Shown in pieces: positions 2,916 to 42,400 of a stretch of 64,000 nt of DNA. The stretch is from a virus (lineage: Duplodnaviria; Caudoviricetes). How positions within the stretch are numbered: position 1 is the first letter of the stretch; every line of letters starts with the position of its first letter. Made by a program: the position numbers and the translations under genes. The DNA lies in the IMG/VR virus record IMGVR_UViG_3300030376_004895, positions 21,931 to 85,930 of that record; one strand, 5' to 3'. The notes beneath the pieces were generated by a model. The model had not been told where the DNA came from and did no database searches. It saw only the letters and a list, made by a program, of their open reading frames with translations.

Positions 2916-3003
2916 ATGCACTTGTGGTAATAAATCGGCATGGCATCATCGCTATGGGATCTGCCTCCAATGTAAGAGGGCAATACCTGGGTGGTCTCGA
3001 TGA
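2902..3003 (+). CDS. 33-aa zinc-finger microprotein
   Basis: Not in ORF track. MTRNECTCGNKSAWHHRYGICLQCKRAIPGWSR (CxC...CxxC). Fills the gap exactly, with ATGA overlap on the ERCC4 start at 3000. Confidence 0.6.
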   Translation: MTRNECTCGNKSAWHHRYGICLQCKRAIPGWSR

Positions 3004-3701
3004 AGACTCTATTCATAGACCATCGAGAGCGTTCGGGCTTAGAGAAATTAGTCATCAAGTATTGTGATACAAAGGGACTTCATTATGAGATGAAGGAGAA
3101 CATGATCACAGACTATGCCTTTGGCAATGTTGGGTTCGAGGCTAAGACGATTCACGATTACATGGGTAGCCTGTATAGTGGGCATCTGGATAAGCAATTG
3201 CAGAATCTTGATGATAACTACAATCAATATTTCTTGTTGGTGCATGGGACAATCGACAATTATATCTCACGAGCTAGAAAGGGAGGGCGAAAGATACCCT
3301 TCGCTAAGATATTCAACGAGTTCCTGGGTTCGCTTGCTAGATTCCATACTGACTATGATCTCAACCTTCTCTGTTTCGCTACTACCTCGGAAGCAGCTAG
3401 GTTCATCTGCAAGAGGTTCGAGAAGGATGGGACTCTAGGCAAGTCATCCAAGTATCGTGTGATGAGGAAGACGGCATCAGAAGACAGGCGCGTGGATGTC
3501 CTGCGAAGTGTCGGTTGCAGCGAGTCAATTGCAAAGGCGTTGCTCGATGAGTTTGGCTCTATCAGCGAAATCACCTCACTTTCTCCGACAGAATTAGAAA
3601 CCATGCCTGGTATTGGAAAAATTACCGCATCAAAAATCCTCAACTGCTTTGTCAGCGAGGAACCAATAGTGGATGAAAAGGTCAAGATGAAGAGGGCATA
3701 A
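3000..3701 (+). CDS. ERCC4 (XPF/Mus81/Hef-type) structure-specific nuclease with C-terminal HhH motifs
   Basis: IDHRE, ITDYAFG, GFEAKTIHDY (ERKxxxD-like), FLLVHG, then HhH segments VGCSESIAKALL and MPGIGKITASKI. Confidence 0.88.
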   Translation: MKTLFIDHRERSGLEKLVIKYCDTKGLHYEMKENMITDYAFGNVGFEAKTIHDYMGSLYSGHLDKQLQNLDDNYNQYFLLVHGTIDNYISRARKGGRKIPFAKIFNEFLGSLARFHTDYDLNLLCFATTSEAARFICKRFEKDGTLGKSSKYRVMRKTASEDRRVDVLRSVGCSESIAKALLDEFGSISEITSLSPTELETMPGIGKITASKILNCFVSEEPIVDEKVKMKRA

Positions 3702-8751: not shown

Positions 8752-11700
8752 TTCACCTCGTAATACAAACTCTTGCTGGCCCCGATGGGTCGCCCCCGCT
8801 TGTTCCCGTCACGCACCCCTATTTTCCCCATTCCATTAGTGTGTTTCGCCCCTATAATGAATCCGGCGTTGCTTACATTACGCACGAATACCTTGTGAAC
8901 AGCTACTACATTGATGCCACTAGACATTGAAATCTCTGCCACATCCACTACTGTTCCTGCCGCCCCATCGAGAGGTGCAGAGTTTCCAGATACTGCTTGG
9001 AGATCAGAGAGGATTCCCTCTATCCCCTTGTCATATTGGCCTACGATGAAGTCACTCTTGAGATTGGTGTAGTCGTGCCTTGCTTCAAAGACCGCATACT
9101 CTCCTCGTAGCCCATGAGTAGGTAGTTCGAGAGAGATTATCTCTCCTGGTTGTATTGAGGATGCCTTGAATGCTCCTTGTAATGTGACAAGTGGTGCGCT
9201 ATTCTCTGATCGTGCGAGGATTGACTTGGCTAATTTGAGTGCTTCAGCATTTGTCTTCAGACCTGGTATCTCTTGGCGTAAGGTGCGAACCATATTGTTC
9301 CTGGCTCCTCTGCTTGCTTCTTTCTTCATGCGTTCCAAGTCCTTGACGACTACGAAGACTCTCTCATTCTCAGCAAGAGGGTCGCCAACGACTACTATCT
9401 CATTGGGAGAATCAAACATCTTGCTAACTGACACACTCTGTATAGCACTACCTAATCCTAATGTGGTTCCTCTGTTGGTGAAATTAGCAGACGAATACAC
9501 TAACGCACCGTTCTTCTCGTTCACAAGTTGCTTCCCATCAATCTGTGTCAAGTTTCTGATAATCTCCATGATGTTCAGACCTCTTGTCTTTCTCGCCGTG
9601 AATACATTCGAGTGATCAGAGATTAATCTCAATGAGGGGTGTGCATCGAGTGTCGAAGACATCTCTCTGTCCTTTGACAAGAGTGCATTGGTTGGTGTCA
9701 CATTGAAACCCGCCAAGTCAGAACCTGCATCATTGAGCAGGGTCATAGTGGCATCGCTTGTCCTTATCCCTACGAAGCCGAGCTGACCCATCAGTATCGG
9801 ACCAGGCATGAGTCCCAAATCAGAGATACTGTCTGCGGCTATATTCCTGAATTGCAAGAAGGTCGATAGCTCGTCTGTTTCAACTCCAGCAATCCTTAGT
9901 GAGAATCCGCTTGTGTCATACAAGTAAGGTGGGAAGTGAGAGTCTGTCAATGTCTTTCCATCGAATCTTATAGCCGTTATAGAAGGGGAGGAGGTTTTGA
10001 CCTGGGCAGCGGTCTTTCCATTCTCTATCAGTATTGGACGTTGGTTCACCATCATGAAGTCTGATGGATCATACTCCATCAAACCCCTGTATGATAGAGT
10101 GGTTTGTTTGACCTCATCCAAAGTCGTATCATAACGGTTCCACAAAGAGGAGGTTTGCTTTGCCAACACGATTGAATTGTCGATGAAAGTGGGCGATACT
10201 AAGTGAGGGACGGTTAGTGATCTCAGATCCGAAAGGGACGAGGGGGTTGCAGAATCGGAAGCGTTGCTTGAATAGTATCGTAGTATCTTGCCTGTCAAAT
10301 CGGCAACACCTGTGCTGTTAGTGACTCCTGTTAGTTTGTTTCGGGTCTTGCCTGTATAATGCACTTCTCTATGGCCGACTAAGAATAGCGTCCCTGCTGT
10401 TGGAAGCATAGATGCATCCTTCAAGAATACATTCGACCCAACGTGCTTCGTGACCTCAAACTGAGGATAGATTCGCATCGAAGTGTCCATGTGAGTATGA
10501 GTCACGGCATCGGGTGTCGTCTGCTTGACGAAATCCCCTGCTATGCCTGTCCCTTCGGCTCTGTATCGAGTTTCCGACTGATGGAGGCTCTCACCCCCTC
10601 CTGGGTGGGTAGTCTGCGAGTATCGTGCCTCTATCTCAGGGTTGAACTCTCCATCGACAGTCTTGCGAACGGCATCGGACTTGAAGAATTGGAGCATGGA
10701 CGCACTAGGGAGAAGATGGAACACGGCATCTAACTCATTTGCATCCGGCCAGGTCATCTCGAATACACCTTCTGCCGTGCTTATGTATTGTAGCGTCCCA
10801 ATGGATTGTTCCATGTCTGCCTCGAATACTCCGTAGCGATTGTCCCTGGTGAATGGTTGATACTCCGTGTCGGCATCACCGAGGGATGATCGTGCGCCAT
10901 GCACCCATCCATCCTGTAGTAAGTCCGATGCGAACCCGAATAGCTTGAGAGGTCTTACGGGGCGCACGAAGTAGTCAATTGACCTCCTCTTCTGATTGGA
11001 TGTCGTAGCATTTCCCTCTGTCCCATAGATGTCTGTCGTCAGGATTCCTTCTTCAGTCCGGTTCAGGTATGTCTTTCTTAGGATGTATGTTCCACCCCAG
11101 GGTGGGAGATCGCCCGAACCTCTTACGGCCCATGCATCCTTCGCATGAGTCTTGGCCGCATTTAGAACGGCAGGGTTTGCGGGTAGTGTGACTGTCGCAG
11201 ATACATCGCCATTCGATCCACTACCACTCATCACTATGTCCGGTGCGGTGGTGTAGCCCGAACCACCGTTTGATATGCTGACTGTTGCTAACGGCCCTGT
11301 CGAGTCTAGTGAGGCGGTGATAGTCTGTGCGGTTCCACCACCGGCAAGATTAGTGGTCGCTGTGACCGTAGGTACTGATGTGTATCCACTTCCGTTGTTC
11401 GTCACATTGACGGCAGTTATCGTGCGAGTAGTCGGATGGCCCGTGTTGATGCTCGCAGTTAGCGAAGCCCCTCCTGATCCTGCTACTGTCACCGCAGGGG
11501 CGGAGGTGTATCCATCGCCCGCATTGTTCAGAGTGACTGAGGCTATCGTTCCACTCGTGTTCATACCAATATCGGCATTGGCGGCAGATTGAGTGCTGCT
11601 ATCAATCCCATGTCCAAGAGAACTTGCTGTGGTTATTTGTATGACTTTGGTTCCGCTATTCGTGAATCCTGCACCTGCGGCAGTTAGAGAGTATGTAGTT

Positions 11701-16850: not shown

Positions 16851-19800
16851 ACCCCCCTACTTGCAAATATCTCATCGCAATCCGAATCGGGCAGAGCGTA
16901 GTTGAATATCGCTACGTTCGCAAGGGCGGTTTCATGCAACCATAGATTATTGCCGTAGGTATTGACACCCGAATCTGAATCATTTGAAGCACCCGCCCCA
17001 TCATCTGTTCCACACGCTAAAGTCGCACTACCAGAAGTGTTGCTAGTCAAGTCAGTCCAACTAGCAATGATGTCTGATCTCCTGATTGTCGATAGACCGA
17101 TGAATAATGAATTGGTTTTTGGGTTGCCGTCACAGAGGTCAGGAGGCAATTGAGCAGGTAGAGCACTAACTGATGATGTAGCAAGTGAACGAACATTGTT
17201 CACATAATTCGATGCATTCGCAGGAAGATTGGAGCCGCCTGTCAGACTAATCATACTTGACTCATCATGGCTTTGAACTGCGCCTGTGCCTGTGTGCCAA
17301 CGCTGGAATCTCAATGCTGTGGAATTGCCCGCACGGAAATCGACAACATTACTTGTCACTTTCACAATCAAGTTAGTCCATGTCAATTTTTGCACTTGCA
17401 AACCACCATTTGTGATGCCTATCGTTTTCCTAGTGTATCCAGAGCCATTGTGATAGATGTATGATGGTCTGATCTGTTGCCAAAGAGTTGAGCTTCCGGT
17501 GAGTCCTCTTGTTCCAGAGATATACAAACCCCATCTATACCCTCTCTTATCGACTCCCGAGACAAGAGGGCCACTTGCTACTTCGGAATCGCCAGCAAAA
17601 CTCGTATCAGTTGGCTTGAACCACACGCTGATGGTGTGATCCTGAGAGCAATCGAACTCTTTGAGAGGCCCATACTCCACGCTATGTGTGGCAGTATCCT
17701 GGTTGAAATGATGTGCAGTAATGGCCGTCTGCCCATTGAAATGGATTCCTTTGTCAGAAGAGTCCACCGAATTAGCAGGGCCGTTTGTGCTTACTGCCCC
17801 TACTCCTCCTGCCCTGATGAACATGACCTTGTTCCCTGCTGCCGCAGTTCCCGATCCATTTGACACGCTGTCAATTCCCCAAAAACCCAGGGTGGACATT
17901 CCTCCGCCACCTGTATAACTGAAAGCCTCGGCATTGCCATTGTCCAATAGGACGTAGCCATTGAATGTCGCATTAGTAGTGGAGTTTGGCTCAACCGTGT
18001 ATCTGAGTTGTTGGTTTCCTATTACGGCATCGCCCGCAGTAGCCGTGAAGTTGATTGCATTGCCGTTTTGCAAGGCTACTCCTGTCAAAGTGTTGCCATT
18101 CTTGCCTGTGTATCTGCAAGATGTCCCATCAATGTTGATTATGTTCTGAGCACCTGAAGCTCCTGTCGCAGAAGCCGTGCCGACATAGAATCGTGATGCA
18201 TCAGTAAGAGTGACGGAGGTAGCACCGGATGCCATGTTCGAGGCCAACGTGGTGCTGGCCCCCTTGATGGACATCTGCGACCAAGTTCCGCTTAGGCTGC
18301 TTTGCAGTTCCCCTACGAAACCTCGCACGAGTCTTAGTTTCGACCCATAAAGATCCTCCACGAAGTAGGAGTCGTTCTGACCCCAGGGAGTCCCTACTGT
18401 TGTCGTAGGAACATCAACCGTAGCCTCATTCAACCTGGCATAGAACAAAGCCCTGCCTAGTGTTCCATCCTTCCTCTCCACTAGCTTGTGGTGTATCCCT
18501 CTTAGGGTGTTGTCGTTGATGGTGTCGTTGTTCGTTATATCGGTGAAGTCCAAGACCGCAGATGCCGTGCTGACTTCGTGCAGGTTCTGAAATCCTGAGA
18601 ATCCTGTTGGCCCCTTAGAGTAGTGGTGAAGGAAGTCATCGCTGTAGTCGTTAGCCGTCCCATCGCTGATGTCGAAGGTGACTCCGGTATGTCCTCCTCC
18701 GAAATACACGATTCCCTCAGAGTCTGAACCAGGATAGATCAACTCGAACTCGACACCTCCGATGGTGGCTCCTTCACTATCATAGAATGTCTCAAGGAAT
18801 TGAGTCATGGTTTCTCCACGAGGAGTGATGTTGCGTATGAAGAAGCAGTTAGTCAGGACATCTGTTGAGGTCGGCAATCTCTGTTGGTCTATGGTTTCAA
18901 AGTCCGCTACTGCTGATCCGACCCTCAGTATTCCCTTCTTGTTCGGCCCCATGAACGTGGTGATTCTCTTGAGGTAATCCTCAACGCTAGTGCTAACGGC
19001 GATGTGAGAGAGGCTTGTCTGAGTAGTGAACTCAAGGAGGGTAGGGCTTGTCATAGGTATGGCTCTCTGCAACTCCTCATTATTTGCTAAAGTCTGACCG
19101 ATGTTTCCTGTGAAGACTATCTGTGTTGCAGTTAGCGAGCTGATTGTCCCTACGCTTGCCCCATCATTGTCATAGACTGTCTCACCTACTCTAAATTTCG
19201 TTGTCGCATCGACAGTATCAACCGCAATAGTCGTGGTTGAACCACTACCATACCCCGACCCGTTGTTCACCAATACTCCGCTATCCTCATACTTCGTAGC
19301 ACCATCTAACTCCTCACTTGCAGGGCTTGCAACGGTTGTGACTTTGAAAGAACTGCCAAGACCATTATAGGATCGTGTGGAATTAGTCGAATCTAAGGCA
19401 CTTCCTGATGGTGCGCCCCTGAATGTCGAGATAGGAACGAACGTCTCTCCATCTGCCCCTATTGGCATCGGAGAGGGTATCAGATTGGGTTGATACAACC
19501 TACTGTTGCTTGATAGTAGTCCTCCATAGCCTACGACTTGGACAGGTTTGTAAGAATAGGGAGTGTTGTTGCTCAGACGGATGTTGAAATTCCGCCCCGA
19601 TGCACCTGGGACTGTGCTATGGATGACAATGGTGCTCCCTGCCTCTCCATCCCTGCTCTCTGTCCCTGTTCCTATGAATGCACGGACATAACCCATGTGA
19701 GTCCCTGTATCCTTGTTGGTAGCGACAGAGGGGAATATAGGAGGGGGGTCGAAGGCACTCCCTCCTTCGCTATTCTTCGCTTGAGGATGCCCTGCCATGT

Positions 19801-22800
19801 TGATTCTCCTGATCACCTCATTCACGCACAGATTGAACTCTCCCATCGTATTAGCGACATCGCTGAAGTCAATCTCTAATGGCCTGACGTATTCTAAGGC
19901 CGTTCCATCTGATTTCTTGCCCTTCAATCCGAGGTAGTTGGTTTGACATATGACTGGATGCAAGGATTGCCTGTCGTTTGCCGCCTCGTTGTTCTCCAGG
20001 ATGTCCCACTCGAATGCCTCCATGTTCGGGCCATTTAGGATGAGGTATCGTGAGGAGTTGTTCGGATCCACATGAACGGCATCAGTATTGAGTCCCATGA
20101 TTGTCCTGACGGCAGTTGCTATATCACTAGCCACTTCGGCAGTAGTGTCGTCATTTGGTATCTGAATGATGAAGTCTTGAGCGTTATTTGGGACTGAAGA
20201 CGAACCATCTAGGATGATGTATCCTCCCATAGTCACCGTCATTCCAGGGTCAATATCAGTAGTCTGATTCGTGCTACTGCTGGCATTGTTGATGGTGTTC
20301 AGAGGATTCCACTCAAGGGTGTTCACGGTTATCTGGTTGTTGCCCGAGTTTAGATTACTGACTTTGAGCATCACCCCATAGCCATCATTCAACACGCCTT
20401 CACCGACTGTGATGAAGAAGTTAGTGTCTGCCGCATTCCCTGCAAGCCCCCTCTCACCTGTCGCAGAGAGGAAAGGAGTGATGTCATCCACAGTCAGGGT
20501 ATTGCTACCGCCTCCGCTTATTGCGGTCACAACCGCTTGCACGGATGGCCTCTGACACCTAATTACCCACCTACCACTACCATATGCCCAAGCGTATAGC
20601 TGATCAGTCACCTCGAAGGAGGCTACCGGACTGACTTGACCCCAATCAACGGCAAAGCGAGACTCGTTGTCCCTCATCTCCGGCCTGTTAGTAGCCATCG
20701 TGCAATCGACAGTCATCTTGAATCTCTTGTCAGATGGCAGAGGGGTTCTCGCATCATTGTCTGCCGCGACTAATGCATCCACATCGAAGAACATGGAGGG
20801 GAACAGGGGTATCTCAGTCACGGCTCTCGTGGATGCGTAGTATGTGGATGTCTGCTTGTCATTACGAACAGATGCATTGCCCGCGCCTACTATCTTGTCC
20901 TTCCAACCAGGGAGGAAGGGGTGTTCTGCATATGTGGGTTGAATATCCATCCCACCCTGTCCTGGCCCTCCTAGAGTCATAGTCACAGTAGGGGTTCCCA
21001 AGTCACCTATTTCTTTCACAGGAGATCCTTGCCCGATATTGAAATCACGAGTGGAACGATGGTCGATTACATCCATTAGGAGGGATCGACCTTCTATAAT
21101 TACCTTCGAGTCTCCTTCATCCGCACCCGTCTGAGGAGTTATCTCTTCGATTCGCCCTCGCATGAGATTCTTCTCTACTGTCGCAAGCGAGCTATCTTTC
21201 GGAGAGTTAGACGTGTGAGATACATCATCCAAAGCGGCATATTTGTCACGATTAGCAGGGTGGGCTAAGACGTAGTTTGAGTTTCCCGTCAATTCATTAT
21301 CTATGACATCATAAACAGAGAGGTCAGACCGCCTGAGTGACGGAGGAGTCAGTTTTGAGGATGTATGGGAGATTCGATTGTTGCCACTTGGAGATGAAAT
21401 ATACATCAAGTGGAAATCGGAGTTGCTGGAATCATCAGGAGTATTGGTGCTTGCTATTGCTTTCGGAGGGGCGTTGCCAATGATCTCAACTCCATTCCCA
21501 TAAGCAGTATTCTCAATATTGATGAATGGCGAGGGAGTTATGTCACCTGTTGGGTTAGACGACAGGGTGTTGGAAGCAGGTCTGTCATTGAAGCTAGTCG
21601 TAGGTAGGCTAACCAATCCTCCTGGGGCGGTGACTGTCAGAGTGATTGCCGAACCGTCTGTCTGATTGCCCGAATAAGGTCTTCTAAGCCAATCTGAGAG
21701 CGTCCGACCACCGAAGACGGCACTACCACAGGGAATGGTCTTGGACACGACTAGGTAAGCCGCATTTCCGGTAGCATGATCGGGCCGAAACTTAGCAGCC
21801 ACTCCTGATGTTGCTAAACTTGACCCTGCCACTACTTCTCCTGTCAGATCTATGGCGTTATAATGCACCAGAATCTGATTGGGGCCACCTGCACTAACTA
21901 ATACGGCTGGAGAGTCAATTACGGCCACTCTACTCTTTCTTTCGGGTGACAAGTGCCTGATGTAGCTGTCATTCGTAGGGACTCCTCCTGAGAAATCAGC
22001 AGTATGCTCGGTATCAAGTCCCTTGAGCATAAATGGCTTCACATTGCTAACTGCAATTGCCACTATCTCATCCCTAGTGGAAGCATACACGTTCTGACTG
22101 ATAGTTTTGTCATAGAATCCTACGCCGGACTCGACCACTATCCTGTTGAATACATTGGTGCTACTGCTTCCCGAGTCAGTTGCCGAGATCGTTGAGGCTT
22201 TGTTGATGATGGTTGAAATCTCTCCATGATAAGCAGGTTCCGTCACTCTTACCTTCTCATTTTCTGAAACAAGAGTGTGCAGAGAAATGTTATCATTCTC
22301 ATATCTGAACGTATTAGCAATCCCCTGGACTGTTTGTTTTACTGTTTGTCTATCAGGAGACGGTAGCATCTTCAGGAAGAAATCGCCATCTATTAGGTTG
22401 TAAGTCGTGACCGCACCCATACCTGCGTATGTTTCACTTGGCTCATACAGAGTATTAGCATCAGTCGCAGATGTGCTACGGCTCTTGGTGGAGAAGAAAT
22501 AGGCATCGTTTGAATATCCCGAGCTATCGGTGAATCGTTGCCCCTGGAGATAATGAGCAAGAGTGAATGTGTCCTTCTTCCTTGTTCTCTGACCCGATAC
22601 TGAAGTATGGGTTTCTTCATTACCAGGGTCAATCAATAAATCGGCTTTTCCTATCGTGAAATAAACAGGTGTGTTATCCGTATGGGAGAATAAGTGGCCT
22701 TGCGTCTCAGGGAGGTTATCGACAGTCCCGTTTGCAGCATCATTCGCTAGATGGACAGACGTGCAATTGATTCTGTTATTTGCAAAGTCCAATCCTGTTA

Positions 22801-23995
22801 TTCGGATCCTCTCAATTCGATTCACAGAAGGATTCAATGTCGAAGTGCTTGATGTGCTAAGGACGGCATTGTTGTTGTATCTGACATTCTGAGAATCGGG
22901 AGGAGTTATGATTCCTGTGCTTGGGCTAGTCCCTGCATGGTTGATAACTGCATTAAGGACTGTTGAACTGACTCCTGTGAAGTATGCTTGATCAGTCAAA
23001 TCCAATGTCGAAGCATACCATGTCTGATCCTTGACTTCATCCAACTCAATCCCCTGCGTCATAGCCGCTAGTTTCTCTAAAGCAGTATATCGGTCTGCTG
23101 GCCCTCCTGGGTTTGCAGAATAGTCCCGTAATTTGAAATGAGTAGTGTTGAAATCATAGCCAATTGCTACCAAAGGGGTATCCAGGAGGCCATCATGAGT
23201 ATCCGGCCCATCTCTCCCCTGATGAGTCGCGCCTGGTCTTGCATTGTCGAAGAAATAGAATTGAGGGATGTCATATTCATCGTCAAAAGTCCACAAGCCG
23301 AATGTATCCTCCGTCTTTGTCAGAGGTTCAACCATCGGATTGACTATACCTTGAGATATTCTTACACTTTCGATGATGCCTCTGTATTCTCCCCCTCTCC
23401 CTCCAATGAATATGTCCGATGAGGATTGATTGACTGTGTTATTCTCGCCACCTAGTATCAGTTTCGCAACAAGATCGCCATTGATGAAGCATCGCAACTC
23501 ATCTTGCGTATATTGAGCAGTAATCAACATCAGACCTTGTTGCCCAATAGTCATATCCTGTGGTCGATGGGCATTAGAGGAGGAAGAATACACTCCTGAG
23601 TTATTGGAGGTCATCACAGGAGCATCAAATGCAGTTGATAAGGTGCTAGGGGTATTTGCCGTCTGGACTTGGAACAATAATTTACCCGAAGAGAAGGGGT
23701 TGCCACAACTTAGTTTGAACGACCCAGGTTTTTCGACCACGACTCCTCCGTAATCAGGGATTATGTATGCATCAATGGTAAATGCTCCTTGAAGCGCATT
23801 CAATGGGTTAGAAGGCGATTCGAGATGCATTCGTCCGGTCTTCGTTGCGTGACTCTTTGTCGATTTCACCGTTCCGGCGAACTCGGCGGGCCTCAGATCG
23901 AAACCTGCTTCTCTGTATTTCCCTGTGGGAACTACTAATCCATCTGTGAATCCATTTAGACGGAGAGCTTTGCCATGAAACCTCACAACGCCCAT
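16844..23995 (-). CDS. Giant tail-tip/adhesin protein (2383 aa) with N- and C-terminal LamG/ConA-like domains
   Basis: N-term FTIDAYIIP...LRCFINGDLV...IFIGG...RGIIESVRIS...GLWTFDD. C-term TISVWFKP...WTNLIVKV...LANVAIFNYAL. Confidence 0.65.
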   Translation of the reverse strand: MGVVRFHGKALRLNGFTDGLVVPTGKYREAGFDLRPAEFAGTVKSTKSHATKTGRMHLESPSNPLNALQGAFTIDAYIIPDYGGVVVEKPGSFKLSCGNPFSSGKLLFQVQTANTPSTLSTAFDAPVMTSNNSGVYSSSSNAHRPQDMTIGQQGLMLITAQYTQDELRCFINGDLVAKLILGGENNTVNQSSSDIFIGGRGGEYRGIIESVRISQGIVNPMVEPLTKTEDTFGLWTFDDEYDIPQFYFFDNARPGATHQGRDGPDTHDGLLDTPLVAIGYDFNTTHFKLRDYSANPGGPADRYTALEKLAAMTQGIELDEVKDQTWYASTLDLTDQAYFTGVSSTVLNAVINHAGTSPSTGIITPPDSQNVRYNNNAVLSTSSTSTLNPSVNRIERIRITGLDFANNRINCTSVHLANDAANGTVDNLPETQGHLFSHTDNTPVYFTIGKADLLIDPGNEETHTSVSGQRTRKKDTFTLAHYLQGQRFTDSSGYSNDAYFFSTKSRSTSATDANTLYEPSETYAGMGAVTTYNLIDGDFFLKMLPSPDRQTVKQTVQGIANTFRYENDNISLHTLVSENEKVRVTEPAYHGEISTIINKASTISATDSGSSSTNVFNRIVVESGVGFYDKTISQNVYASTRDEIVAIAVSNVKPFMLKGLDTEHTADFSGGVPTNDSYIRHLSPERKSRVAVIDSPAVLVSAGGPNQILVHYNAIDLTGEVVAGSSLATSGVAAKFRPDHATGNAAYLVVSKTIPCGSAVFGGRTLSDWLRRPYSGNQTDGSAITLTVTAPGGLVSLPTTSFNDRPASNTLSSNPTGDITPSPFINIENTAYGNGVEIIGNAPPKAIASTNTPDDSSNSDFHLMYISSPSGNNRISHTSSKLTPPSLRRSDLSVYDVIDNELTGNSNYVLAHPANRDKYAALDDVSHTSNSPKDSSLATVEKNLMRGRIEEITPQTGADEGDSKVIIEGRSLLMDVIDHRSTRDFNIGQGSPVKEIGDLGTPTVTMTLGGPGQGGMDIQPTYAEHPFLPGWKDKIVGAGNASVRNDKQTSTYYASTRAVTEIPLFPSMFFDVDALVAADNDARTPLPSDKRFKMTVDCTMATNRPEMRDNESRFAVDWGQVSPVASFEVTDQLYAWAYGSGRWVIRCQRPSVQAVVTAISGGGSNTLTVDDITPFLSATGERGLAGNAADTNFFITVGEGVLNDGYGVMLKVSNLNSGNNQITVNTLEWNPLNTINNASSSTNQTTDIDPGMTVTMGGYIILDGSSSVPNNAQDFIIQIPNDDTTAEVASDIATAVRTIMGLNTDAVHVDPNNSSRYLILNGPNMEAFEWDILENNEAANDRQSLHPVICQTNYLGLKGKKSDGTALEYVRPLEIDFSDVANTMGEFNLCVNEVIRRINMAGHPQAKNSEGGSAFDPPPIFPSVATNKDTGTHMGYVRAFIGTGTESRDGEAGSTIVIHSTVPGASGRNFNIRLSNNTPYSYKPVQVVGYGGLLSSNSRLYQPNLIPSPMPIGADGETFVPISTFRGAPSGSALDSTNSTRSYNGLGSSFKVTTVASPASEELDGATKYEDSGVLVNNGSGYGSGSTTTIAVDTVDATTKFRVGETVYDNDGASVGTISSLTATQIVFTGNIGQTLANNEELQRAIPMTSPTLLEFTTQTSLSHIAVSTSVEDYLKRITTFMGPNKKGILRVGSAVADFETIDQQRLPTSTDVLTNCFFIRNITPRGETMTQFLETFYDSEGATIGGVEFELIYPGSDSEGIVYFGGGHTGVTFDISDGTANDYSDDFLHHYSKGPTGFSGFQNLHEVSTASAVLDFTDITNNDTINDNTLRGIHHKLVERKDGTLGRALFYARLNEATVDVPTTTVGTPWGQNDSYFVEDLYGSKLRLVRGFVGELQSSLSGTWSQMSIKGASTTLASNMASGATSVTLTDASRFYVGTASATGASGAQNIINIDGTSCRYTGKNGNTLTGVALQNGNAINFTATAGDAVIGNQQLRYTVEPNSTTNATFNGYVLLDNGNAEAFSYTGGGGMSTLGFWGIDSVSNGSGTAAAGNKVMFIRAGGVGAVSTNGPANSVDSSDKGIHFNGQTAITAHHFNQDTATHSVEYGPLKEFDCSQDHTISVWFKPTDTSFAGDSEVASGPLVSGVDKRGYRWGLYISGTRGLTGSSTLWQQIRPSYIYHNGSGYTRKTIGITNGGLQVQKLTWTNLIVKVTSNVVDFRAGNSTALRFQRWHTGTGAVQSHDESSMISLTGGSNLPANASNYVNNVRSLATSSVSALPAQLPPDLCDGNPKTNSLFIGLSTIRRSDIIASWTDLTSNTSGSATLACGTDDGAGASNDSDSGVNTYGNNLWLHETALANVAIFNYALPDSDCDEIFASRGVW

Positions 23996-30458: not shown

Positions 30459-33400
30459 CTAATCTTGCCTCCAATTCCTCAACCTTAGCCGTCAGCTCCT
30501 GAACCGCCTTGACAAGCATCGGAACGAGCATTGACGTATCAAGGACGTGGAAGTCATCAAGTCCTTGCTCCTCTGTTAGTGTGACCGCATCGGGGATGAC
30601 TTCCTTGAACTCCTGGGCGATGAAGTTTATCTGATCCTTCGCCCCGTCTATGTAGTCGAACTTGACGGGCCTTAGTGAGTTGATTACATCCAAACTCGAA
30701 TCCAATTCGACTATGTTTTCCTTGACTCTCATGTCAGAAGACGTAGCCCAAGCCGAGTTCGTTGCCCTTCCTTGCCCATTGACATGGATGATATGGGAAG
30801 GAGCCGTGACTCCTATGCCGAGTTGCCCTCCTCCATCGAGATACATCTTCTCAGTAGGGGTAGTGCCGGAAGTCGTGCTGGATCTTGTCCAGAACATCAT
30901 TCCCGTTGGTCTGCCCCAATTGGATGAGTCATCGCCCCTTGCACCGATACCTGCCCATTTGTCAGTTTCATCCTCATTACCCCATCCTGATAGTTTGAGT
31001 TTGATACCGACTCCGTATCCATCAGAATTTGCATTCTTGGCGTTGGCGACTGTCACAGGCCATTGGATGGTATCATCAGTTGATTGGGCGACAAGCGCAC
31101 CCGTCACCTTACTATGGTCTGCCGCTTGCATCTGGTCGAATCCATCGTGGATGAGCCTCAAAACCGCTTGATCGGAGTATTGACTGTCATCACGGATGCG
31201 AACAAGGTCATTGTCCATATTGGATGCAGATTGGTTTCTCGTGATCTCCAAGCCAATGCCACTTGTCGTTGTGACAGTCCATGTTGGGTTGTTCGCCAGG
31301 TTGAGGTTGGTGTCAATATCGCCACCGTCTGCGGCCCACTCAAGGACGGTTCCACTTGAAGGCCACTTGAGAACTTGACCTGCGGAACCTGCTGTGCCAG
31401 GAATGACGTAGGCATTGTTGTTCGTTATCCCGCTTCCGTCAGATAGAATCTCGAACCTCTCAACTGCCGCACCGCTTGATACGGAGCTTGTTCCTGAATA
31501 GAATTTCAAGTGATTGACATTCTCTATTCTCCAATCGTTGTAGTTGTCACCCGTTCCCCAAGTGTCATGCGTCCCTCTCATCATCTCTATTCTTGGTGCA
31601 GGTGATGAGTTCGTATCGGCGTGTATTCTGAGTAATTGATTTGCAGTTGCGGATTGTATGTATGTATCGCCTTTAACGTGAAGCAATACCTCTGGACTTG
31701 TAGTGCCTATTCCGACATAGCCCTCCTGTCCGAGAATGGTGAATCTGTCAGTCAAATTGGCAGTTCCTATCTTCCTCGTTGCGATTCTGAAGTCACTTGT
31801 ATGGTAGTCATCGGTCACACCATCAGATGTTCCTGAATTACCATGCACGTTGTATAGTTCAACTGTGGTATTACCACTATTACCCGTGTGTTTTCTGAAA
31901 GCAATCTTGCTTAGAACATCCCCCGCACTCAAGGATGCTACGTTTGTATTGCGATAGATGCCAAGAATAGGTGCAGTAGCGTGTTCTATCGTCATTGTAT
32001 CTGGTGGTGTATCTGTGCCTATTCCGACCTTGCCAGCAGAAGTGATCCTCATCTTCTCAGCAAGTGTCCCTGCTAGGGAAGTGCTGAATGTCATGTAGCC
32101 ATCTTCGGCAGTATTTGTTGAATCTTCGATATTGCCAGTCATCCTAGCATACTCATGGCCTGATGATGCACTACCTGAATCGCCAAATTGGAACTTGATT
32201 GCTGAACCGTAGTTTGCACCAGTAGCATCCCTTCTCAATACTAAGTGTGCTTCATTAGTAGCATTGTATATCGTAGTGTCACCAGCAATTTGTAATGTGG
32301 AAACCGGACTAGCAGTATAGATTCCTACGCGATCAGTCGAACCATCGACCATTATCGCAGGTGTTGCTGAGTCTCCGTATATCTTGGTGTCCCAATCGAA
32401 ATGCTCCCTGTTGAACTCAAGGGTTCCCGTAGTGGTGTCGTGGTCGGTCATCTTCATGATTGACCTGCGAGTGGATGCACCTCCTGTTATCTCGAAATTC
32501 CCATAGGTGTCCTCTGTCAGATCAGTCCAGGTATCTGAGCCGTGTTGCGACAGTAGCCTCAATGTCGCATCTGCATCGGCAGAGGCATTGTCATTAGCGA
32601 TAGTCACCATAGTTGATGTTTTTGTGGAATAGAAGTATCCGCCGTTGATTAACGAGGAGATGGGTGGTTCAGTCCCATCGCACAGATCGACCCTCGGGCC
32701 GAACAAGTATCCGTCTGGATCGGTGTTGCCTGTATCATCGTAATAGAACAGGAAGGAACGGTGTTTTGAGGTGGTTGTATCGGTGTGCCATCTGAATGAG
32801 TCTGTGATGTTAGCTTCTTTCTTCCCCGTATCGACATCATAGATTCCACCATAGATGTTAGTGTCGGGAGCAGTATCGCCGCTTCCCAGGACATGACCCA
32901 CTAGCAAATACCACTTGCCCGTTTCAGGTAAGTCACCAGCCCAAAAGTATGGGTTGGTGCTCACCTGATCGTTGTCGATGTGAACTACACCATTCGTGTT
33001 TCCATAGCCGTGAGTGCCGAAATACAGAGTCATCGAGCCGCTACCGGATTGCGGACTCTCTTGCCTGGCGAAGACGCTGAAACGGTATGTCCTGGTGTGA
33101 TCGACAGGGAAGGCATCAGTTGTCCAACCACCATCTCCCCCTCCTGCATCCATGTTAGTCATTTGCCATAGGATTCCTCGTTGCGGATAGTATGGAGATG
33201 GCGTATCACCCCATACTCGTGAGTTCTCGTTAGTGTTGCCATTCTGAACGAAGTCGAAGTATCCGTTTGTATCGGATCCCGTTCCTACCGTCCATTGGAC
33301 ATCGAGCACTTGGCTACTCGCACCCACTACTCGGCTATTCTTATCGACAAATACTCCTGTGGATGTGACGTTGCCCTGGAACTCTGTATTAACTCCTTCA

Positions 33401-36400
33401 ATCAAGAGGTTGCCACTTGAGGGGAAACTGATTGCTTGGTTGCCGTTGCTCGCATTCTTGATTTTGTATGCGCCTTGACTAATGTGAATGTCACCGCTTT
33501 GAACATAAGTATCACCAACGACATGGAGAGGATGTGAGGGACTCGTAGTTTTTATTCCGACCCTACCATCGCCCCTCACAATCATCACATCTTCGTTATC
33601 GCTGAATCTGAATGTGAAGTTATCAGTCGATGCAGTTCCGCCTTCGTGCTTGATGTAATGTCCACCTGCACCATTGAAGTGCAGATTGCTAGAAAGTTCA
33701 ATCGAGCCTGTGACATCCAATGGGCTTGAAGGACTCGAATTGCCTATTCCGACATTACCATCAGGGCCGTGTATCCTCATGGCTTCGACTACTGTGGAAT
33801 CGCCGTCCGTCCCACCTGCATTGGTGGCAAATATGATGTCATCCGTATCGCGGTTGGTTTGGAGATACAAAGAATTACCATGTGCTTGAATCCTTGAACT
33901 GCTACCATCTCCGAATACCCTGATGTCTCCACCACTCGTATTACCGAGTTGTAGGTAGCCTGACCCGTTTGCTCTGATGATGCCATTATTTTGAACAAGG
34001 ACTTGACCATCTTCGGCAATCCTCATTCTTTCCACGTTGCCATCGTTGTCATTCGTGAAGAATACCAATGCCCCACTCGCCCAAGAGTTAGCATTCCTTG
34101 TGTTGTAGGTGGCTGATATAGCGGCTACTGCTACGGGGTTCGCATTAGCGGGGTTGCCATCATCATCCTCGTGAGTGGTGAATGCTATGTGGGGCGACCA
34201 GTTGTTGTTTGTCGGATCTTCGTTATGCAGGGCAAGACCGATTTCTTGCTCATCCCAATCCGTGTTTGCATCATCGGCATGGATAACCATCTTTGCGGCT
34301 CGTTGATGACTACCTGTTAGGAATATTCCATTTTCGACTTCATACGCAGTTGAACCCACATGGAGCTGTGCGGCAGGGCTTGTAGTGCCTATTCCGACCC
34401 TGCTTGTAGATGCTTCTCCGAATAGGTAAGTGCCACCTGTTCCCCTCACTAGGAAGTCAATGTCATCCGAGTCGGCTGCTATGATTACCTGCTTCTGACT
34501 GTGCGATTGAACTGTGACATACTCATCGCCTCCATTCTCTGGAGTTGCCATTATGCCCGCTTTGTGATTGGATGCATACTGCCTACCGAAAATCCAATCC
34601 TCTGTCACCGAACCATCGCTGTTGTCGTAATCCCCTATCACCATACCTGCGGCACGATAGCCATCTGCGAAGACTCTGATACCTGCTACTTGATCGCCCG
34701 ATGAAGCGTTGTCGGACTTGAATGTCGCAAGCGCACTATCGCCTTGTAGCGTAAGATTCGGGCCACCTGTAAGGGCGGTGCTCTCACCACTCTTACCTAA
34801 GAAGAGGTTTCCGTCAATATCTAATTTATGTTGTGGGGATGTGACTCCTATCCCGACATTACCATCGGATTTGATCGTCATTTTCTCTTGACGACCTGTT
34901 CCTGCATCGGTAGTATAGAAGTGAAGGCTACCTGTGACTGTGGCGTTTGCAGTAAGCCCTGTGTCAATCGTAGCACCGATACCACCGACTTCCTGTGCGC
35001 TACCATTGTTTTTCTTAGTCCTGAAGTGGATGTTAGAACCTGCTCCGTCTGCATCCATATTCATTCTGGTGATGTTTAGTGGCCCATAATTCGCCCCGTT
35101 GTTAGTAGTGGATGATGCCTCACGAATGTCCCAGGGAACGGGCGTTCCGCTTCCTGTGTGACTTGCGAGAATAACTTGGTCGGTTCCTGTGTTGTCAATG
35201 ATCACATTACCATCGTGATCGCCCTGTGCTTGGAATGTCCCTGTGACATCGAGTGTGAAGCCAGGACTCGTAGTGCCTATTCCGACTCTCATTGTGCTAC
35301 CATCTAGCATCATCAAGTCAGTATTAGCGGCATTCATCCTGAATCGTATGTCGCCATTATCTATTCTTTGGTCAATGTAAGAAGCACTTGCTCTATGGAA
35401 TGCGAAAGCATTGTTTGTCATTAGGGTGTAATAGTCATCTGCTTGTAGTCCTACTTGTATTGACCCATTATCCACATGAAGTGTAGTCTCAGGACTCGTA
35501 GTGCCTATTCCGACTCTCGCGTTCGCCCCATCAATCTTCATGACATCGGTGTTCGCAGATTTGAATGTCATCGAATCATCGGCAATCGTGATCTGCTCCT
35601 GGGAACTCATGGCACGTTGTAATTTCAGATCCTCGTTGTATGAGGAAACTATTCCCGAATCAACCACTATTTGCTTGTTGAGATAGAATTTGCTGACATC
35701 GGTGCTGATGTGAGCATAAGTGCCGTTCTGAGGCCCAAATGAAATATATCCATTACTGTTTCTAGCTTGGAAAGTGACACCAGAATCTGGAGTGTAGGAT
35801 TTCCAACAGTTATCTCCCTCATCAAAGAGGAGCGTAGCGTTTGCCGTGTCTCCCCTCTCAACCTCGATACCCGCATCGACATCGGCAGGTGTCCCTGTGA
35901 CGTTGCTATTGAGGACAACGATGTTATCCTCTACGGCAAGGTTGGTCGTGTTGATGGTGGTCGTTGTTCCTGATACAGTCAAGTCACCTGCGACAGTCAC
36001 ATTTGCACCTGATAGCGTTAGGGCAGTAGTTCCACCAGATGATTTGATGTCATTACCACTAACTTGTAAATCTCCTGAAACGGTGACATTACCTGTTCTA
36101 TTGATGTCAAGTAAGTTTGTTCCGGCGGCATTCCTAAAGAGGAAGCCATCTCCGTCACCGTTGTCTCGAAGAATGAATCTCAAATCTCTATTAAGTGGGC
36201 CGATGATTTCGGCATATGTGTCCGATCCGGCGTAGTTCATCGTAAGGGATCCTACTGCCGATGCCGCACCTGTGACAGTCAAAGCCCCTGTTAGCGTTCC
36301 ACCGGCAGAAGTAGTCTCGAACGACTTAGTGTTATCATAATACAGCTCGACATTGCCATTCTTGTTTATCTCAATGCCCTTTTCAGTTCCAATGTTGAAT

Positions 36401-39400
36401 TGGATACCTGCGCCATCCTCATTCTTGAATATCATCCAGGAGTCTGTTGCCGCATTGTGAGTTATGCGTGTATGCGAACCATCGAACTTCAACTCCAATT
36501 GTTGCGAAGCACCCAATCTCAGCCTTGCATCATTGACAGGCAGATCAACGCTGTTGTATGATTGGCTGCCATTTGAATTGCCACCTCTAAGCCTCAATAC
36601 TTCTTGAAGAGTGAATACATCATCATTTGAGTCATTTGTGTCAAGGTAGAATGACATCTGCCCTTCATTGACAAGACTCGACCCTACTGATTTGTATGCA
36701 ATCCTAGCATCAGCAGTATCGGTTCTGAATGTGACACCTGCCCATGACCCATCTGTGGTCGATTCGTTCTCAATGTATAGGCCACCGCCTTGAGCATTAG
36801 CCCCGATAGCACCCGCACCGCTTGATGAGCCGCTACCCTCTGGATCAGTCCTGTTATCTGTGTATTTCAGATGAAGAGGGAACAATGGAGCTGTTTCGCC
36901 TATTCCTAACTTACCTGCTGAATTAAGTGTCATCTTTACTGCCGCACTTGTGGCGAACTTTATGTCGGCGGCTTCGGCATTCCAAATATAGAAATGCTCA
37001 CCTGCGACTTGTAATAAGGAACCATGACCGGAAGCCGTTCCTGTTGTATCGTTGGTTAGTCTCAGTTCTGGAAGAGTAGCATCATTGATGTGTAGTCCTC
37101 TTCCACCATTTGAGTAATTTGCAGGGCTACTTGTTCCTATTCCCACATAACCATCAGAAGCAATCCTCATGGCTTCGTTCTTAGTGCTACTACCGCTATG
37201 GGGGCTGAATACGATAGCCGCCGCACCGCTTGACACGTTCGTCAGTTCAAACTCTATGTCTCCGGCAGGAACGGTATTCCAAAAGCCCTCGATGCCTATT
37301 CTCTCTCCAAGTGCATTGACTGTCGAATCCCTTAGCCTTAGCATCAGATTCTCAGCATCAGACTCGCTTCTCTCGATGTGGAGTTTGGTTGCGGGAGTAG
37401 TAGTGCCTATTCCGACATTGCCCGTTGTTCCTTCTACCACTAATCTATAGGCTGACGCATCTATATTGTATAAACCAAATGCGCCTGTTCCATCCACAGT
37501 ACCAGCATTGTCAGCCGCAGAAATTAATCTCCACTCATCCCCTCCTGTTGCAGTAGCATCAAGGCTAATCTGTGAACCTGTGATATGAGATGAATCAACA
37601 CTCAATGACACTTCTGCGTTATCTGAAATATGAAGTTTAGTAGTTGGGGCTGTATTGCCTATTCCGACCTTGCCATCAGTCTTGACCACCATATGGACAT
37701 TGTTGCCCTCAACGATGCGTAGTTTGTCGCTATCTGCCCCCCTTGCCTGTAATTTCCAATGATGGGAATCGGTCTTTATCTCAACCGCAGGGTTGCTGCT
37801 TGATCCTGTGTCTTCCACAAGGAGTGACGTTCCACCATCAGTTCCCTTTAGGTGCAGGGTATCATCAGGACTTGCAGTTCCAATTCCTACTCGTTGATTC
37901 GCAGTATGAAGATACATAGGGGTTGCAGTAATTCCATCATAGATCCTATACTGAGTATCGCTTCCTCCACCAAGACCCATTGCCATTGTTCTGAAATAAG
38001 CAGGAGAAAGTGTGCTGGAGTTGCCTTCTCCATCGGTAGCAGGTGTGGTTGTGGAACCCGTTGTCGTGTTATACCAAGTCCAAGAAGTAGCGGGAATGTT
38101 ATCCCCATGCCTTACGTTCTGTATGACTTGTAGGTATTTCTTATTCCATGCTTGGTCGTTTCTGAAATACAGAGTTGCCTTCGGGTCTGAACCCCCGCTA
38201 CTATGGTCGAATACCATTAGGAAGGTATCTTGAGCAGTTGAAGCGTAAGGCCCATGAATAGTGAAAGCCTTTGTCCACCAGGTAGTAGCGAACTCACCAC
38301 GAATCAATAATTCTGTCCAATGAGAGGCGTTTCCTCTTTGAGTTATCTTTGCATGGAATGAGAATGAGTCATAGTTGCTTCCATCCATGATCCACTCGCA
38401 AACCTTGATCCACTTGTTTGCGTTATTGCCATCAGCGACTCCTAGTGTGTATGAGTTAGGAGTAAATTGTCTGTTATCCGAACCATATAGCTCTCCCTTG
38501 TCATTTAGAGTCAGTTTCGTTGCCCCGCCCGTTTGGAAAAACATATCGTCATCAGCATGGAGAGTTAAATCATCGTCAGCCGCTAATGTAATATCAGTTC
38601 CAGTAGCATTCCAATATAGGTAGGAACCTGTGGCATCTGCGCTTAGGAACATCTTACCTGCTTGACCAGTATATCCTACTTTCGCGTTAGTAGTATTCAA
38701 AAATGTTTGAGCATCTTCCACCTTGACTCTTTGTGTGCCATTTGTTTTCAAAGTAATATGATTACCTGCCCCATTCGCAACAATATCCAATCCTGTTCCA
38801 TCTGTGATGAGTCTGACATCGAAGTCATCAGATGAGTTATTCTTCAAGTCGATGTAAGCACCGGAAGACCCACCCATTTCTATGCGACCATAGCCACTTG
38901 AGGGATATATGGCTAACAACCCCGATGGGTCATAAGTCAAGGTCGATTCGACAGATGCCTCATCTGCATCCTTGTAGGTCAAGACACCATTGGCAGTTGA
39001 GCCATCGAAAGCGATTCCTCCCGCGCCACCTGTGTCTATGGAATCTTGCAAGTCATCAATCGTCATGTATTTCCAGGAGGATGCCGACTCATCCCAAAGT
39101 ATGATCTTGTCATCCGTAGCATCAGTCGATTCAGTCAGTTGAGTCAGAGTTGCAGGGTCGGCTAGACCAAGAGTGGCAGAGTAGGAACCTGAGCCTGTGT
39201 TCGTTTCGCTCGCTATCGTGATAGGGGATGTGACTGTGAGATCAACGCCCGTGATGTCGCCCGTGTTGGTAGTGTATCCGTATGACAGTATCTTGTCCTG
39301 GACGGCGGCTGAAGTCATGATGGTGGTGTCGTTATCCGCAAAGGACTCCGAACCTGTCTGTATGGCAGAACCAGCTATGTTCGCTACTGCAACACTCTGC

Positions 39401-42400
39401 AGGAAGCCGAATGAGTTTGCTTCGATGTAATTCTTGATTCCCGCCGCAGTAAGGAATGATGTGTCGTTGTTGCCGAATGAGGATACCTCTGAGCTAGTCT
39501 GAACCGCCGCACCTGCAAATTGGGCTACTCCTAAACTGCCGACATTCAAGGTGTTGCCCGACTTAGACAACCCTGTCCCTGCGGTTATTTGTCCCGTTCC
39601 TGTGAATTGGGTGAATGTCAATGAGGTTGAGTCAAGAGTAATGTCATCATTGGTCGTGAGAATCCAACCTTGATCTCCATTGACAGTCCCTTCTTCAACC
39701 CATACATAGAGTCCCGCCGTGACCTCCACATCAGCATCCGCATCAGAGGCCCGCGACCAGCCACTTGCCGAAGCGACATAGATGCCATTCTCTGATCCAT
39801 CACTTTGATCTTTAACGAGAACTCTGTCATTTGCTTGCACGGATACCCCGTCAATGGTCTGTGTTCCACTACGAGTTATGTTGGCCGTTGTAGCGACTCT
39901 CACAGAGTCTTTCGTGTCTAGCCCCTGCTTGAGTCCATCAACGTATGATTTGGTTGCTATCGTGCCTGTATCGACATTGAATGTCAGCGTTTCATTCCCT
40001 GCCTGGTCGGTAGTGAAGTTGCCACCGCCGGATAGACCTGTTCCCGCCGTAAGGGTGATTGTAGCATCATTGGCGGAAGGCACACCGGCTATTGTGAGTT
40101 GTTGGGGAGAGGTTCCTGTATTGGGTGTGAGCGTTATGTTGGCCCCTGCTACGAACTTGACATCCTGGGTTCCACTACTCGCACCACTCTTTGTTAAACG
40201 CAAGAGGGCATCGTTTGAGCTATCGACAAAGGATGTGGCAAAGACGTTCTGAGTGTTGGTGTCAGTCGAGGCTATGGTTAGTTGAGTGCCGCTATTCCTA
40301 GTGACTGTGACATTGGAACCACCTGTGATGGTGATGTCATCATTGCTACCTGTGCTTGGATCAAGTCTGAGGACAGGATCATTGTTGTCACCGAGCGTCT
40401 GTGCAACAAGGAGGTCATAGGTAGTTGCTGTTGTTGATGAAATGGTTATGGTATCGCCCGTTTCTGCAATCTGGACGTTGGAACCTCCGGCAATGGTGAT
40501 GTAATCCGTTCCGCTTCCCGAGCCTCCCGCAACCAGGTTGATTCGAGCATCGCTTCCAGATGTGGAGGAATTGGTCGAGTATGTGGTATCGCTTGATACT
40601 ATGGTGATGACATCGCTCTCTTGACTGACGGTGGTGTTCGTCCCACCTGCTAGCTTCACGGTGTCAGTCCCACTCCCTGAGCCACCTGCGGTCAGGACTA
40701 GGTTTGCCCCTCCTGTGACAGTCGCAGAACTGATTGCATAGGTATGGTTGTCGTTTTCATCCGTTCCCCATGCTATTACGCCCCCTGCACCTGTCTTGAG
40801 GACTTGACCGGAAGAACCGCGATCCGTAGGGAATGTGAATGCATTGCCTCCTGAGTTGAATGCCACTTTGCCCGTCCCATGCGGGTCAAAGGTTATGTCG
40901 TCATTGTTATTTGATGTCTTGAATGTAAGAGGCGATGCCGTGACTATTTCCCCTCCATTCCCTGTCGTATGAATCCTTATGTCAAAGTCATCTGACTCAG
41001 GTGATTTGAGGTCTATACGCGCACCAACGTCACCACCCATCTCCAATGTGGTATATCCCGCATCAAGGGTATTCGTCCCACCCGTCTTGACAATGAAACT
41101 CTCACCCGCGCCCTTGTCTATGGAGAACACCGCCCCACCCGAATTACCATCAGGACTGAATGTTAGGTATTCTTCCCCTTGAAATGTGTCTGAATTGATT
41201 GAAGTAAGGATACGATCATTAGAACCATTAGACATGAAGTCGCTGACATCCACGCTGAACTCGCCCGAGCCGCTAATGTCTATTCCTGTCCCTGCTGTTG
41301 GAACAGAACCAGCATTCAGACCTATGTTGGTTCGTGCCTGTGCCTTCTGAGTGGTTGTGAAAGATTGAGATGCATCTGCTCTGATCCTGTTGCCAAGAGC
41401 CGTGTTGATGGTAGAGAAATATGAAGCATCATCATTGATTGCGGCGGCTAATTCATTCAGAGTATCTAATGCACCAGGAGCTGAATCAATCAAAGAAGTG
41501 ACTTCGTTATCGACATAAGCCTTGATTGATTGTTGTGATGCGGCATGAGTGGCTGAGTTGGATGCCATGTTGTCTTCGTCTTTGAGGTCTATTGTGATGG
41601 TGGCCGAGTAATCTCCGCTTGCCGTGTTGGTTTCGCTTTGGATGAGCATCCCCGTTCCTGCGGTCAGATCAACACCAGATGTGATGTCGGCCAAGACCGC
41701 ATAGCCATAGGACAGTATCTTGTCCTGGATAGCCGCAGAGGTCATGAGCGATGTGTCATTGTCTGCAAAGGACTCAGAACTCACTTGAAGGCTATTGGCG
41801 GCTAATTCGGATACGGTTAGTCCACCTACATTGAGAGTGACCGCACCTGCGGCTTGATTTGCAGTAATCCCCGTATTCGCAGTTATGCTATACACTACGC
41901 CTGTGGTGCTTGTCCCAATGGCAACACCGTTGATAGAACCCCCTGTGATGGATACATCATCCGAATCCTGAGTGGCTATTGTCCCTAACCCCAGGGATGT
42001 TCGAGCCGTTGCACCGCTTTCTGCCACCCAATTAACGCCATTTCCTACTATGAATACGCTATCAGAGGGGGTCATAGCGGCCAAAGTCGTCAAATCTCCA
42101 TCATATGATTGGAATGTGTTCGCACCGCTTACTGAGCCATCGGCTGGATTGACTACAGGATCAACTGCGGTTGCAAGCAAGCTGAACGTGATTATCTCGC
42201 ATTGCAAGGTGTATCTGAATAGCTTCTTTGAACGATCAGAGAGGTCAGTCCTGGTCTTGTAGATGAGTCGGTCAAAGTTATTGTTGTCTCCCTTTCTGAA
42301 AGCATGAATGATTCGTCTGACTTCATCACGCATCTCAGATAGCCTTTCACGACTATCTACTGTCCTACAATCAATGGTGATATTGACGTGTTCATTCACA

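Follow-up and report, generated by a model that had tools for sequence, protein, structure and literature searches.

The host range of tailed viruses is set by their fibre proteins, and the rapid rebuilding of very large fibres is only partly understood. In T-even phages, the distal tail-fibre and adhesin genes undergo motif-mediated exchange, involving conserved motifs in gp37 and glycine-rich motifs in gp38 (Tetart et al. 1996, 1998, cited by Trojet et al. 2011, PMC3157838). In T4-type genomes, mobile regulatory cassettes (PeSLs) mediate modular shuffling, according to the accessible part of Arbiol et al. 2010 (PMC2839356). At the level of protein structure, the available text of Caulton et al. 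2024 (PMC10769870) describes a ‘capping loop’ at the edges of intertwined, S74-associated trimeric beta-helices, with the consensus V-G-G/N-pi-x-x-P-x-x-x-L. Here we analysed a 64,000-nucleotide stretch of DNA from an uncultured marine virus (positions 21,931 to 85,930 of IMG/VR record IMGVR_UViG_3300030376_004895; hereafter the window), whose viral record is 85,930 bp long and 81% complete. The window carries a giant tail-fibre gene with 14 copies of a capping-loop motif, many of them in one and the same DNA spelling. These capping-loop codons probably serve as short stretches of in-frame homology at which general recombination trades entire beta-helix modules.

The junctions of this fibre appear to work like the motif exchange of T-even gp37/gp38 without being members of that family. 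Both have short conserved motifs between variable segments of a host-recognition protein, and both yield chimeric adhesins in frame. However, there is no sequence relationship between them, and the conserved element here is a beta-helix capping loop delimiting 13 large modules in 4047 aa instead of short loops. Synonymous locking and sharing across distantly related contigs further set this fibre apart, as does its origin from an uncultured, probably archaeal virus. The Bdellovibrio MAT and S74 phage fibres (PMC10769870; 8OND, 8OJN, 8OML) share the motif residue for residue, the S74 C-terminal chaperone and the mosaic domains, but the loop is presented in the accessible text of that study as a protein structure only, whereas conservation at the DNA level and a putative role in recombination emerged here. 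PeSLs, in the part of their description at hand, are likewise short repeated DNA elements that serve as recombination points for module shuffling, but they lie between genes, consist of promoter and stem-loop elements and move entire genes, in contrast to the in-frame coding junctions within one gene here. Shufflons and tail-fibre invertases (R64 Rci, Mu Gin, P1 Cin) also use short repeats in adhesin genes to rearrange C-terminal parts, yet they require inverted repeats and a dedicated recombinase, while the fibre repeats here are all direct and no such recombinase was found in the record. Nor do the 13-29 bp junctions resemble the template and variable repeat pair of a diversity-generating retroelement, and there was no match to PF00078. 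In the literature searched, nothing specific on codon-locked fibre junctions was found, and VGIGT occurred there in unrelated peptides only.

The N-terminal ~1370 aa of the fibre are conserved among relatives. Between residues 1569 and 3940, 14 junction motifs of the form [VL]GIG[TN]xxPxxxL[HD][VI] separate 13 modules of 64-510 aa, which have only their first 14-30 residues in common (module-against-module BLAST). These are followed by the C-terminal S74 chaperone domain, the sole Pfam match within the 4047-aa protein. Searches against PDB sequences matched the motif-rich part to the fibre tips of Bdellovibrio MAT (8OND, E = 1.1e-5; 8OJN, E = 1.9e-4; 8OML, E = 7.8e-7), with alignments centred on the capping-loop motif, and one large module to the cyanophage fibre 8I4M (E = 1.3e-8). 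The hallmarks of S74-type fibres are thus present, i.e. the C-terminal S74 chaperone, 14 capping-loop motif copies and similarity to solved beta-helix tips, and the protein is predicted to be an S74-chaperoned trimeric beta-helix fibre in which a capping loop opens each beta-helix module. VGIG, the start of the motif, is therefore a peptide already known, marking the start of each beta-helix unit, since the capping loop was described by Caulton et al. 2024. Megablast with the fibre gene as query gave no match among GenBank phages.

The spelling of the junctions is far more uniform than their peptide demands. VGIG occurs at 11 sites of the fibre and is spelt GTC GGA ATA GGC at eight of them, out of 192 possible encodings (4x4x3x4). 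The 13-bp core GTCGGAATAGGCA has eight exact copies in the window, all on the minus strand, in frame and only in the open reading frame (ORF) of the fibre, where dinucleotide shuffles predict 0 copies. All eight are direct repeats, the reverse complement is absent from the window, and the junction 12-mer was not found outside the fibre gene in the whole 85,930-bp record. At a ninth site (GTCGGAATA-AAA-ACTACGAGTCC), AAA replaces the second Gly codon GGC by three base changes in one codon, and the homologous module of contig L113 has the canonical core with GGC at this position. Under the codon usage of the virus itself (GTC 0.34-0.42, GGA 0.29-0.31, ATA 0.32-0.34, GGC 0.24), the probability of the core spelling given VGIG is 0.008-0.010 and that of at least 8 of 11 sites carrying it 2e-15 to 2e-14, so that codon bias is rejected as the cause. 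A sequence-only reading of the window had listed the eight copies and their codons, the ninth site, 29 exact bp common to the sites at 35274 and 35502 and the dissimilarity of the modules, and had named codon bias as the explanation to be excluded; all of this held up. The spacings it gave were also reproduced, although in-frame sites of a single ORF necessarily lie a multiple of 3 apart.

Synonymous sites are locked in the core but not around it. Among the eight copies, the four core codons were identical in 112 of 112 pairwise comparisons and flank codons for identical residues in 72 of 186 (39%), a contrast that is partly circular because these copies were picked by their core; with all 11 VGIG sites, the values are 157/220 versus 129/349. 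The invariant Pro at +7 is encoded by CCA, CCC or CCT in the eight copies, and Leu at +11 by CTT, CTC or TTG. Synonymous sites are therefore frozen in the core and saturated around it. Elsewhere in the 86-kb record there are ten Gly-Ile-Gly tripeptides in nine other spellings, none of them GGAATAGGC (0/10), which is used at 9 of 13 junction sites (hypergeometric P about 9e-4).

Homology between the fibre and its relatives breaks at the same positions. When the gene was compared with all retrieved loci by BLASTN, its modules each matched different contigs, with matches beginning at -8 to 0 and finishing at +7 to +24 relative to the core. For matches of at least 100 nt, 38 of 78 ends were located at the motif (-20 to +45 of its start), versus 11.5% expected (P about 4e-16). 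Between gene nt 4705 and 10879, homology to one contig or another breaks at every motif site. In an example cassette of core, 76-aa module and core, identity with L009 begins and finishes at one 23-mer, GTCGGAATAGGCACTACGAGTCC, on both sides, and the module upstream of the first core is common to L010, where identity halts at the end of this 23-mer; at gene nt 5686, identity with L010 starts just past the loop. Outside the modules, L010 is nearly the same virus, with DNA identity of 98% ahead of the fibre gene and up to its nt 1366 and of 95% downstream of the gene, and with neighbouring proteins that are mostly 95-100% identical (one at 82%). Its fibre is a mosaic in which patches of 85-92% identity lie between unrelated stretches, which makes the fibre the hot spot of recombination in a genome that hardly differs otherwise. 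L009 fuses its N-terminal part directly to the 2361-type module, and the joint corresponds to a loop-like, non-VGIG stretch of the window (...TKLTLNDKGELYG...).

Coordinates of the features of the window (L numbers are compared loci)
Feature	Position	Strand	Remark
Giant tail-fibre gene, P0001, 4047 aa	30451..42594	minus	ORF and translation
Junction motif, drifted spelling GTAGGAATTGGA, V1569	37878..37890	minus	Breakpoint versus L031, L032
Exact core GTCGGAATAGGCA, V1643	37656..37668	minus	Breakpoint versus L046, L062, L113
Exact core GTCGGAATAGGCA, V1727	37404..37416	minus	Exact match, in frame
Junction motif, drifted spelling GTGGGAATAGGA, V1817	37134..37146	minus	L070 match finishes at -5
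Junction motif LGIG, TTAGGAATAGGC, L1896	36897..36909	minus	L010, L012, L014, L086 and L104 matches all begin here
Exact core GTCGGAATAGGCA, V2361	35502..35514	minus	Three-way mosaic point: upstream module in L010, downstream module in L009
Example cassette, core + 76-aa module + core (gene nt 7081-7331, ~250 nt)	35264..35514	minus	About 94-96% identical in L009
Exact core GTCGGAATAGGCA, V2437	35274..35286	minus	29 exact bp common with core at 35502
Junction motif, drifted spelling GTCGGGATAGGA, V2580	34845..34857	minus	L032, L052 finish at +10; L082 begins at 0
Exact core GTCGGAATAGGCA, V2733	34386..34398	minus	L066, L096 matches begin at offset 0 and -1
Exact core GTCGGAATAGGCA, V2948	33741..33753	minus	L113, L068, L060 matches begin at -6
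Ninth site GTCGGAATA-AAA-ACTACGAGTCC, encodes VGIK	33549..33561	minus	Flanks canonical
Exact core GTCGGAATAGGCA, V3523	32016..32028	minus	L054, L070 matches finish at +13
Exact core GTCGGAATAGGCA, V3627	31704..31716	minus	L114, L062 matches finish at +22
Last junction motif LGIG, CTCGGCATAGGA, L3925	30810..30822	minus	Just upstream of S74 domain
Peptidase_S74 intramolecular chaperone domain, PF13884, fibre residues 3953-4005	30580..30738	minus	Pfam E = 2.1e-13
ERCC4 + helix-hairpin-helix nuclease, archaeal Hef/XPF type	2991..3701	plus	Candidate processor of recombination intermediates, context only

The wider pool of related fibres, tested without the window gene as query, behaves in the same way. 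Among matches of at least 90% identity, 60 of 188 internal ends were at the motif, where about 20 were expected and 200 randomisations reached a maximum of 32. Informative motif sites, i.e. those touched by a shared segment, numbered 124, with 105 of them being breakpoints and only 12 being spanned. Breakpoints were found at 45/95 canonical cores versus 60/208 other cores (odds ratio 2.2, P = 0.003). In a collection of 5.8 billion proteins, the best match of each module covers exactly one module (coverage 0.99-1.00) and comes from a different protein. Module order is permuted, with the 2361-type before the 1643-type in P0014 and the 3523-type before the 1817-type in P0009. In several pool contigs, fibre modules have 80-86% nucleotide identity while the ERCC4 nuclease has only 32-36% protein identity. 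Modules thus pass between lineages that are far apart.

Because the loop is written in one DNA spelling, modules that otherwise have no relationship are exactly identical, in frame, over 12-29 bp. In the mechanism we propose, host or viral enzymes would produce crossovers in these core tracts during co-infection, through general homologous or short-homology recombination, and whole modules would be exchanged, inserted, lost or reordered with the reading frame and the fold intact. The core would then be the physical crossover substrate on which host or viral recombination enzymes act, and the modules presumably bind host surface receptors. The lock on the spelling might have two reasons, as the core would be copied at each exchange and modules with drifted cores would be less able to move to new contexts. 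Locked spelling is thus, in all likelihood, both a consequence and an enabler of exchange. The sequence-only reading had suggested frame-preserving module swapping at these repeats, by analogy with T-even fibres and with no recombinase in sight. Its expectation that breakpoints among relatives fall on the site agrees with the match ends, the stops at the 23-mer and the pool sites described above, the analogy is apt, though without homology, and no invertase, integrase, reverse transcriptase or RecA/Rad51 was found in the 86-kb record (81% complete). The swapping itself stands as exchange within the pool, but some breakpoints lie off the motif and there is no dedicated switching system.

Several points weigh against crossover in the core. 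Homology with L010 also breaks without a VGIG motif at gene nt 1366, 1552, 3890 and 10289 (window 41229, 41043, 38705 and 32306), another off-motif breakpoint is at gene nt 6521/6607, and drifted cores are breakpoints too. Local alignments tend to run into any conserved motif and then stop, and breakpoints are placed only to within some 25 nt. A concentration of surviving breakpoints at domain borders would likewise result if selection favoured chimeras able to fold. For classical homologous recombination, 12-29 bp is a short tract. No strand-exchange protein was found in the record, 81% complete as it is, and the identical architecture in three assemblies implies that exchange is not frequent.

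Part of this would be accommodated by descent only, an unlikely alternative in which one ancestral loop is kept by purifying selection, recombination takes place at random positions and chimeras joined at domain borders are retained, the core not being a substrate at all. The capping-loop peptide is indeed an old and widespread structural element, and the breakpoints at drifted cores and off the motif fit this explanation. However, purifying selection at the protein level does not protect synonymous sites, and the flanks encode their invariant residues with randomised codons, whereas the four core codons agree throughout the eight copies. Moreover, descent only does not account for canonical cores being breakpoints more often than drifted ones, nor for recent cassettes being bounded by perfect 23-mers.

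The spelling is specific to a gene pool. The 17-mer GTCGGAATAGGCACTAC was found in 71 stretches from many samples, often with 2-4 copies per contig, and a control 17-mer (the pattern backwards) in 21 stretches, nearly all from one sample (3300045988). In an arbitrary sample of viral sites, obtained by a degenerate IMG/VR scan for GNVGIGTxxP, the junction 12-mer was present at 0/91 selected sites and at 2/503 motif sites overall, and relatives chosen by N-terminal peptides alone had the exact 12-mer at 6/16 sites. At 186 non-selected motif sites in the contigs with the 17-mer, Ile is ATA in 87% versus about 30% background, and the favoured codons at the other positions are GGA (64%) for the first Gly, GGC (47%) for the second, ACT (82%) for Thr at +4 and GGT (65%) for Gly at -2. 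The pool spelling of the loop is roughly GGT nnn GTC GGA ATA GGC ACT ACn AGT CC. The three motif Gly positions in the pool prefer three different codons (GGT, GGA, GGC), which argues against translational optimisation. Other lineages have their own locked spelling, e.g. GTTGGTATAGGA at 11/14 sites in L134 and GTCGGTATCGGG at 9/11 in L124, and 12-mer identity is 16.8% within a locus versus 1.4% between loci. Since other lineages lock other spellings, it is identity among copies that is conserved and not one particular word, which points to a homology-dependent process.

These patterns also make it very unlikely that the word has a sequence-specific role of its own in RNA or DNA, be it a translational pause, a codon-pair effect, an RNA structure or a protein-binding site. 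Translational pausing at domain borders is a known idea, and the strong preference for ATA at Ile would suit such a function. Against it stand the quite different words locked in other lineages, the three codons preferred at the three Gly positions and the non-junction GIG sites of the virus, which never use the junction spelling. Nor did the RNA surrounding the core fold in a consistent way, with z values from -1.65 to +1.23 and core pairing that differs per copy.

Crossover between like-spelt cores would be infrequent. Two independent ENA assemblies contain the same 4047-aa protein with 3-4 differences (99.9% identity, protein comparison), and the fibre architecture is identical across three assemblies; this rules out a chimera of assembly and shows that the architecture is stable. 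Programmed variation by a site-specific shufflon or invertase, or by a diversity-generating retroelement acting on the repeats, might be suspected from the many short identical repeats inside a host-recognition gene, but is highly improbable given that the repeats are all direct and none inverted, that no serine recombinase, tyrosine recombinase or reverse transcriptase was found in the 86-kb record (81% complete) and that the architecture is the same in all three assemblies. With direct repeats and neither a recombinase nor a reverse transcriptase detected, both kinds of programmed system fail in their defining features. Shuffling is evolutionary-scale exchange within a gene pool and not rapid programmed switching. 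That metagenome assemblers joined strains at the shared repeat is hardly credible, because although chimeric joins at in-frame repeats would leave the ORF open, the independent assemblies agree, the shared modules differ by 4-25% and were recovered from many samples, and repeats of 13-29 bp are shorter than the usual final assembly k-mers.

More tentatively, the junction spelling could be a compatibility tag, of which each gene pool would keep a private one, here GTCGGAATAGGC, with modules moving within but not between pools. Second-order selection on how readily the host-recognition fibre can be rebuilt might then keep the spelling locked. GTCGGAATAGGC is common to distantly related marine contigs, some of which have distant homologues of the replication and repair genes of the virus.

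The host of this virus is likely, but not proven, to be an archaeon, judging from its capsid protein, its thermosome and its Hef/XPF-type nuclease. Among 50,697 GenBank phage records, the capsid protein matched archaeal tailed viruses only, namely the haloarchaeal HVTV-1, HCTV-1 and HCTV-5 at 32-33% identity and one Methanofastidiosa virus, and the placement of the HVTV-1 capsid clade among marine archaeal viruses (Liu et al. 2021) adds to the case. The thermosome is a full-length group II chaperonin encoded outside the window (G000:C1:8446-10026, L235). With the NCBIfam thermosome alpha equivalog it reaches 552 bits, where the cut-off is 450, and it scores far lower as GroEL. Distant homologues of the ERCC4 and helix-hairpin-helix nuclease (28-36%) are located a few kb from fibre genes in L046, L048, L062, L094, L103, L104 and L105, all of which contain the junction 17-mer.

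The record also encodes a PD-(D/E)XK exonuclease and a UvrD-like helicase. The gene of a 419-aa P-loop protein overlaps the start of the exonuclease gene (G000:C1:18962-21252; L235, L236), a pair that resembles the arrangement of two-gene phage recombination modules. An AAA_24/Sak4-like label for this 419-aa ORF, a protein-atlas lead present in 13-16% of cluster members, was not confirmed, as Pfam gave only weak P-loop matches. No Rad51/RecA, AAA_24, resolvase (PF00239), integrase (PF00589) or reverse transcriptase (PF00078) was detected in the 86-kb record, which is 81% complete.

Two other features of the region concern the fibre gene and its surroundings. A second repeat of 79 nt with 80% identity is found within the gene at window positions 39275-39353 and 41702-41780 (minus strand), corresponding to residues of about 272-298 and 1081-1107 and to a segment of the type ...SESFADNDT.(L/I)MTSAA(I/V)QDKILSYGY. 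It is matched crosswise by L010, and for several relatives the protein match stops close to residues 298 and 1068-1117; this repeat may mark module junctions of another type in the N-terminal part of the fibre. Downstream of the fibre, two more giant ORFs follow on the minus strand (8748-16850, 2700 aa; 16844-23995, 2383 aa). Neither has a Pfam domain, and the junction 12-mer, allowing up to 2 mismatches, is absent from both except for one chance-level site at 13032.

Crossover at capping-loop cores would amount to a rule that can be read from sequence, whereby the structural loop that opens a module doubles as a crossover tract of 12-29 bp with frozen synonymous sites. This would extend the conserved-motif mechanism of T-even phages to S74-type beta-helix fibres, to a virus with a thermosome, a Hef/XPF-type nuclease and a haloarchaeal-virus-like capsid protein, and to exchange among lineages with hardly anything else in common. 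In metagenomes, module-exchange communities could then be told apart by their junction spelling, which could also locate module borders without structures. If the spelling is indeed a compatibility tag, the global stock of VGIG modules would be split into exchange communities that are readable from their junctions.

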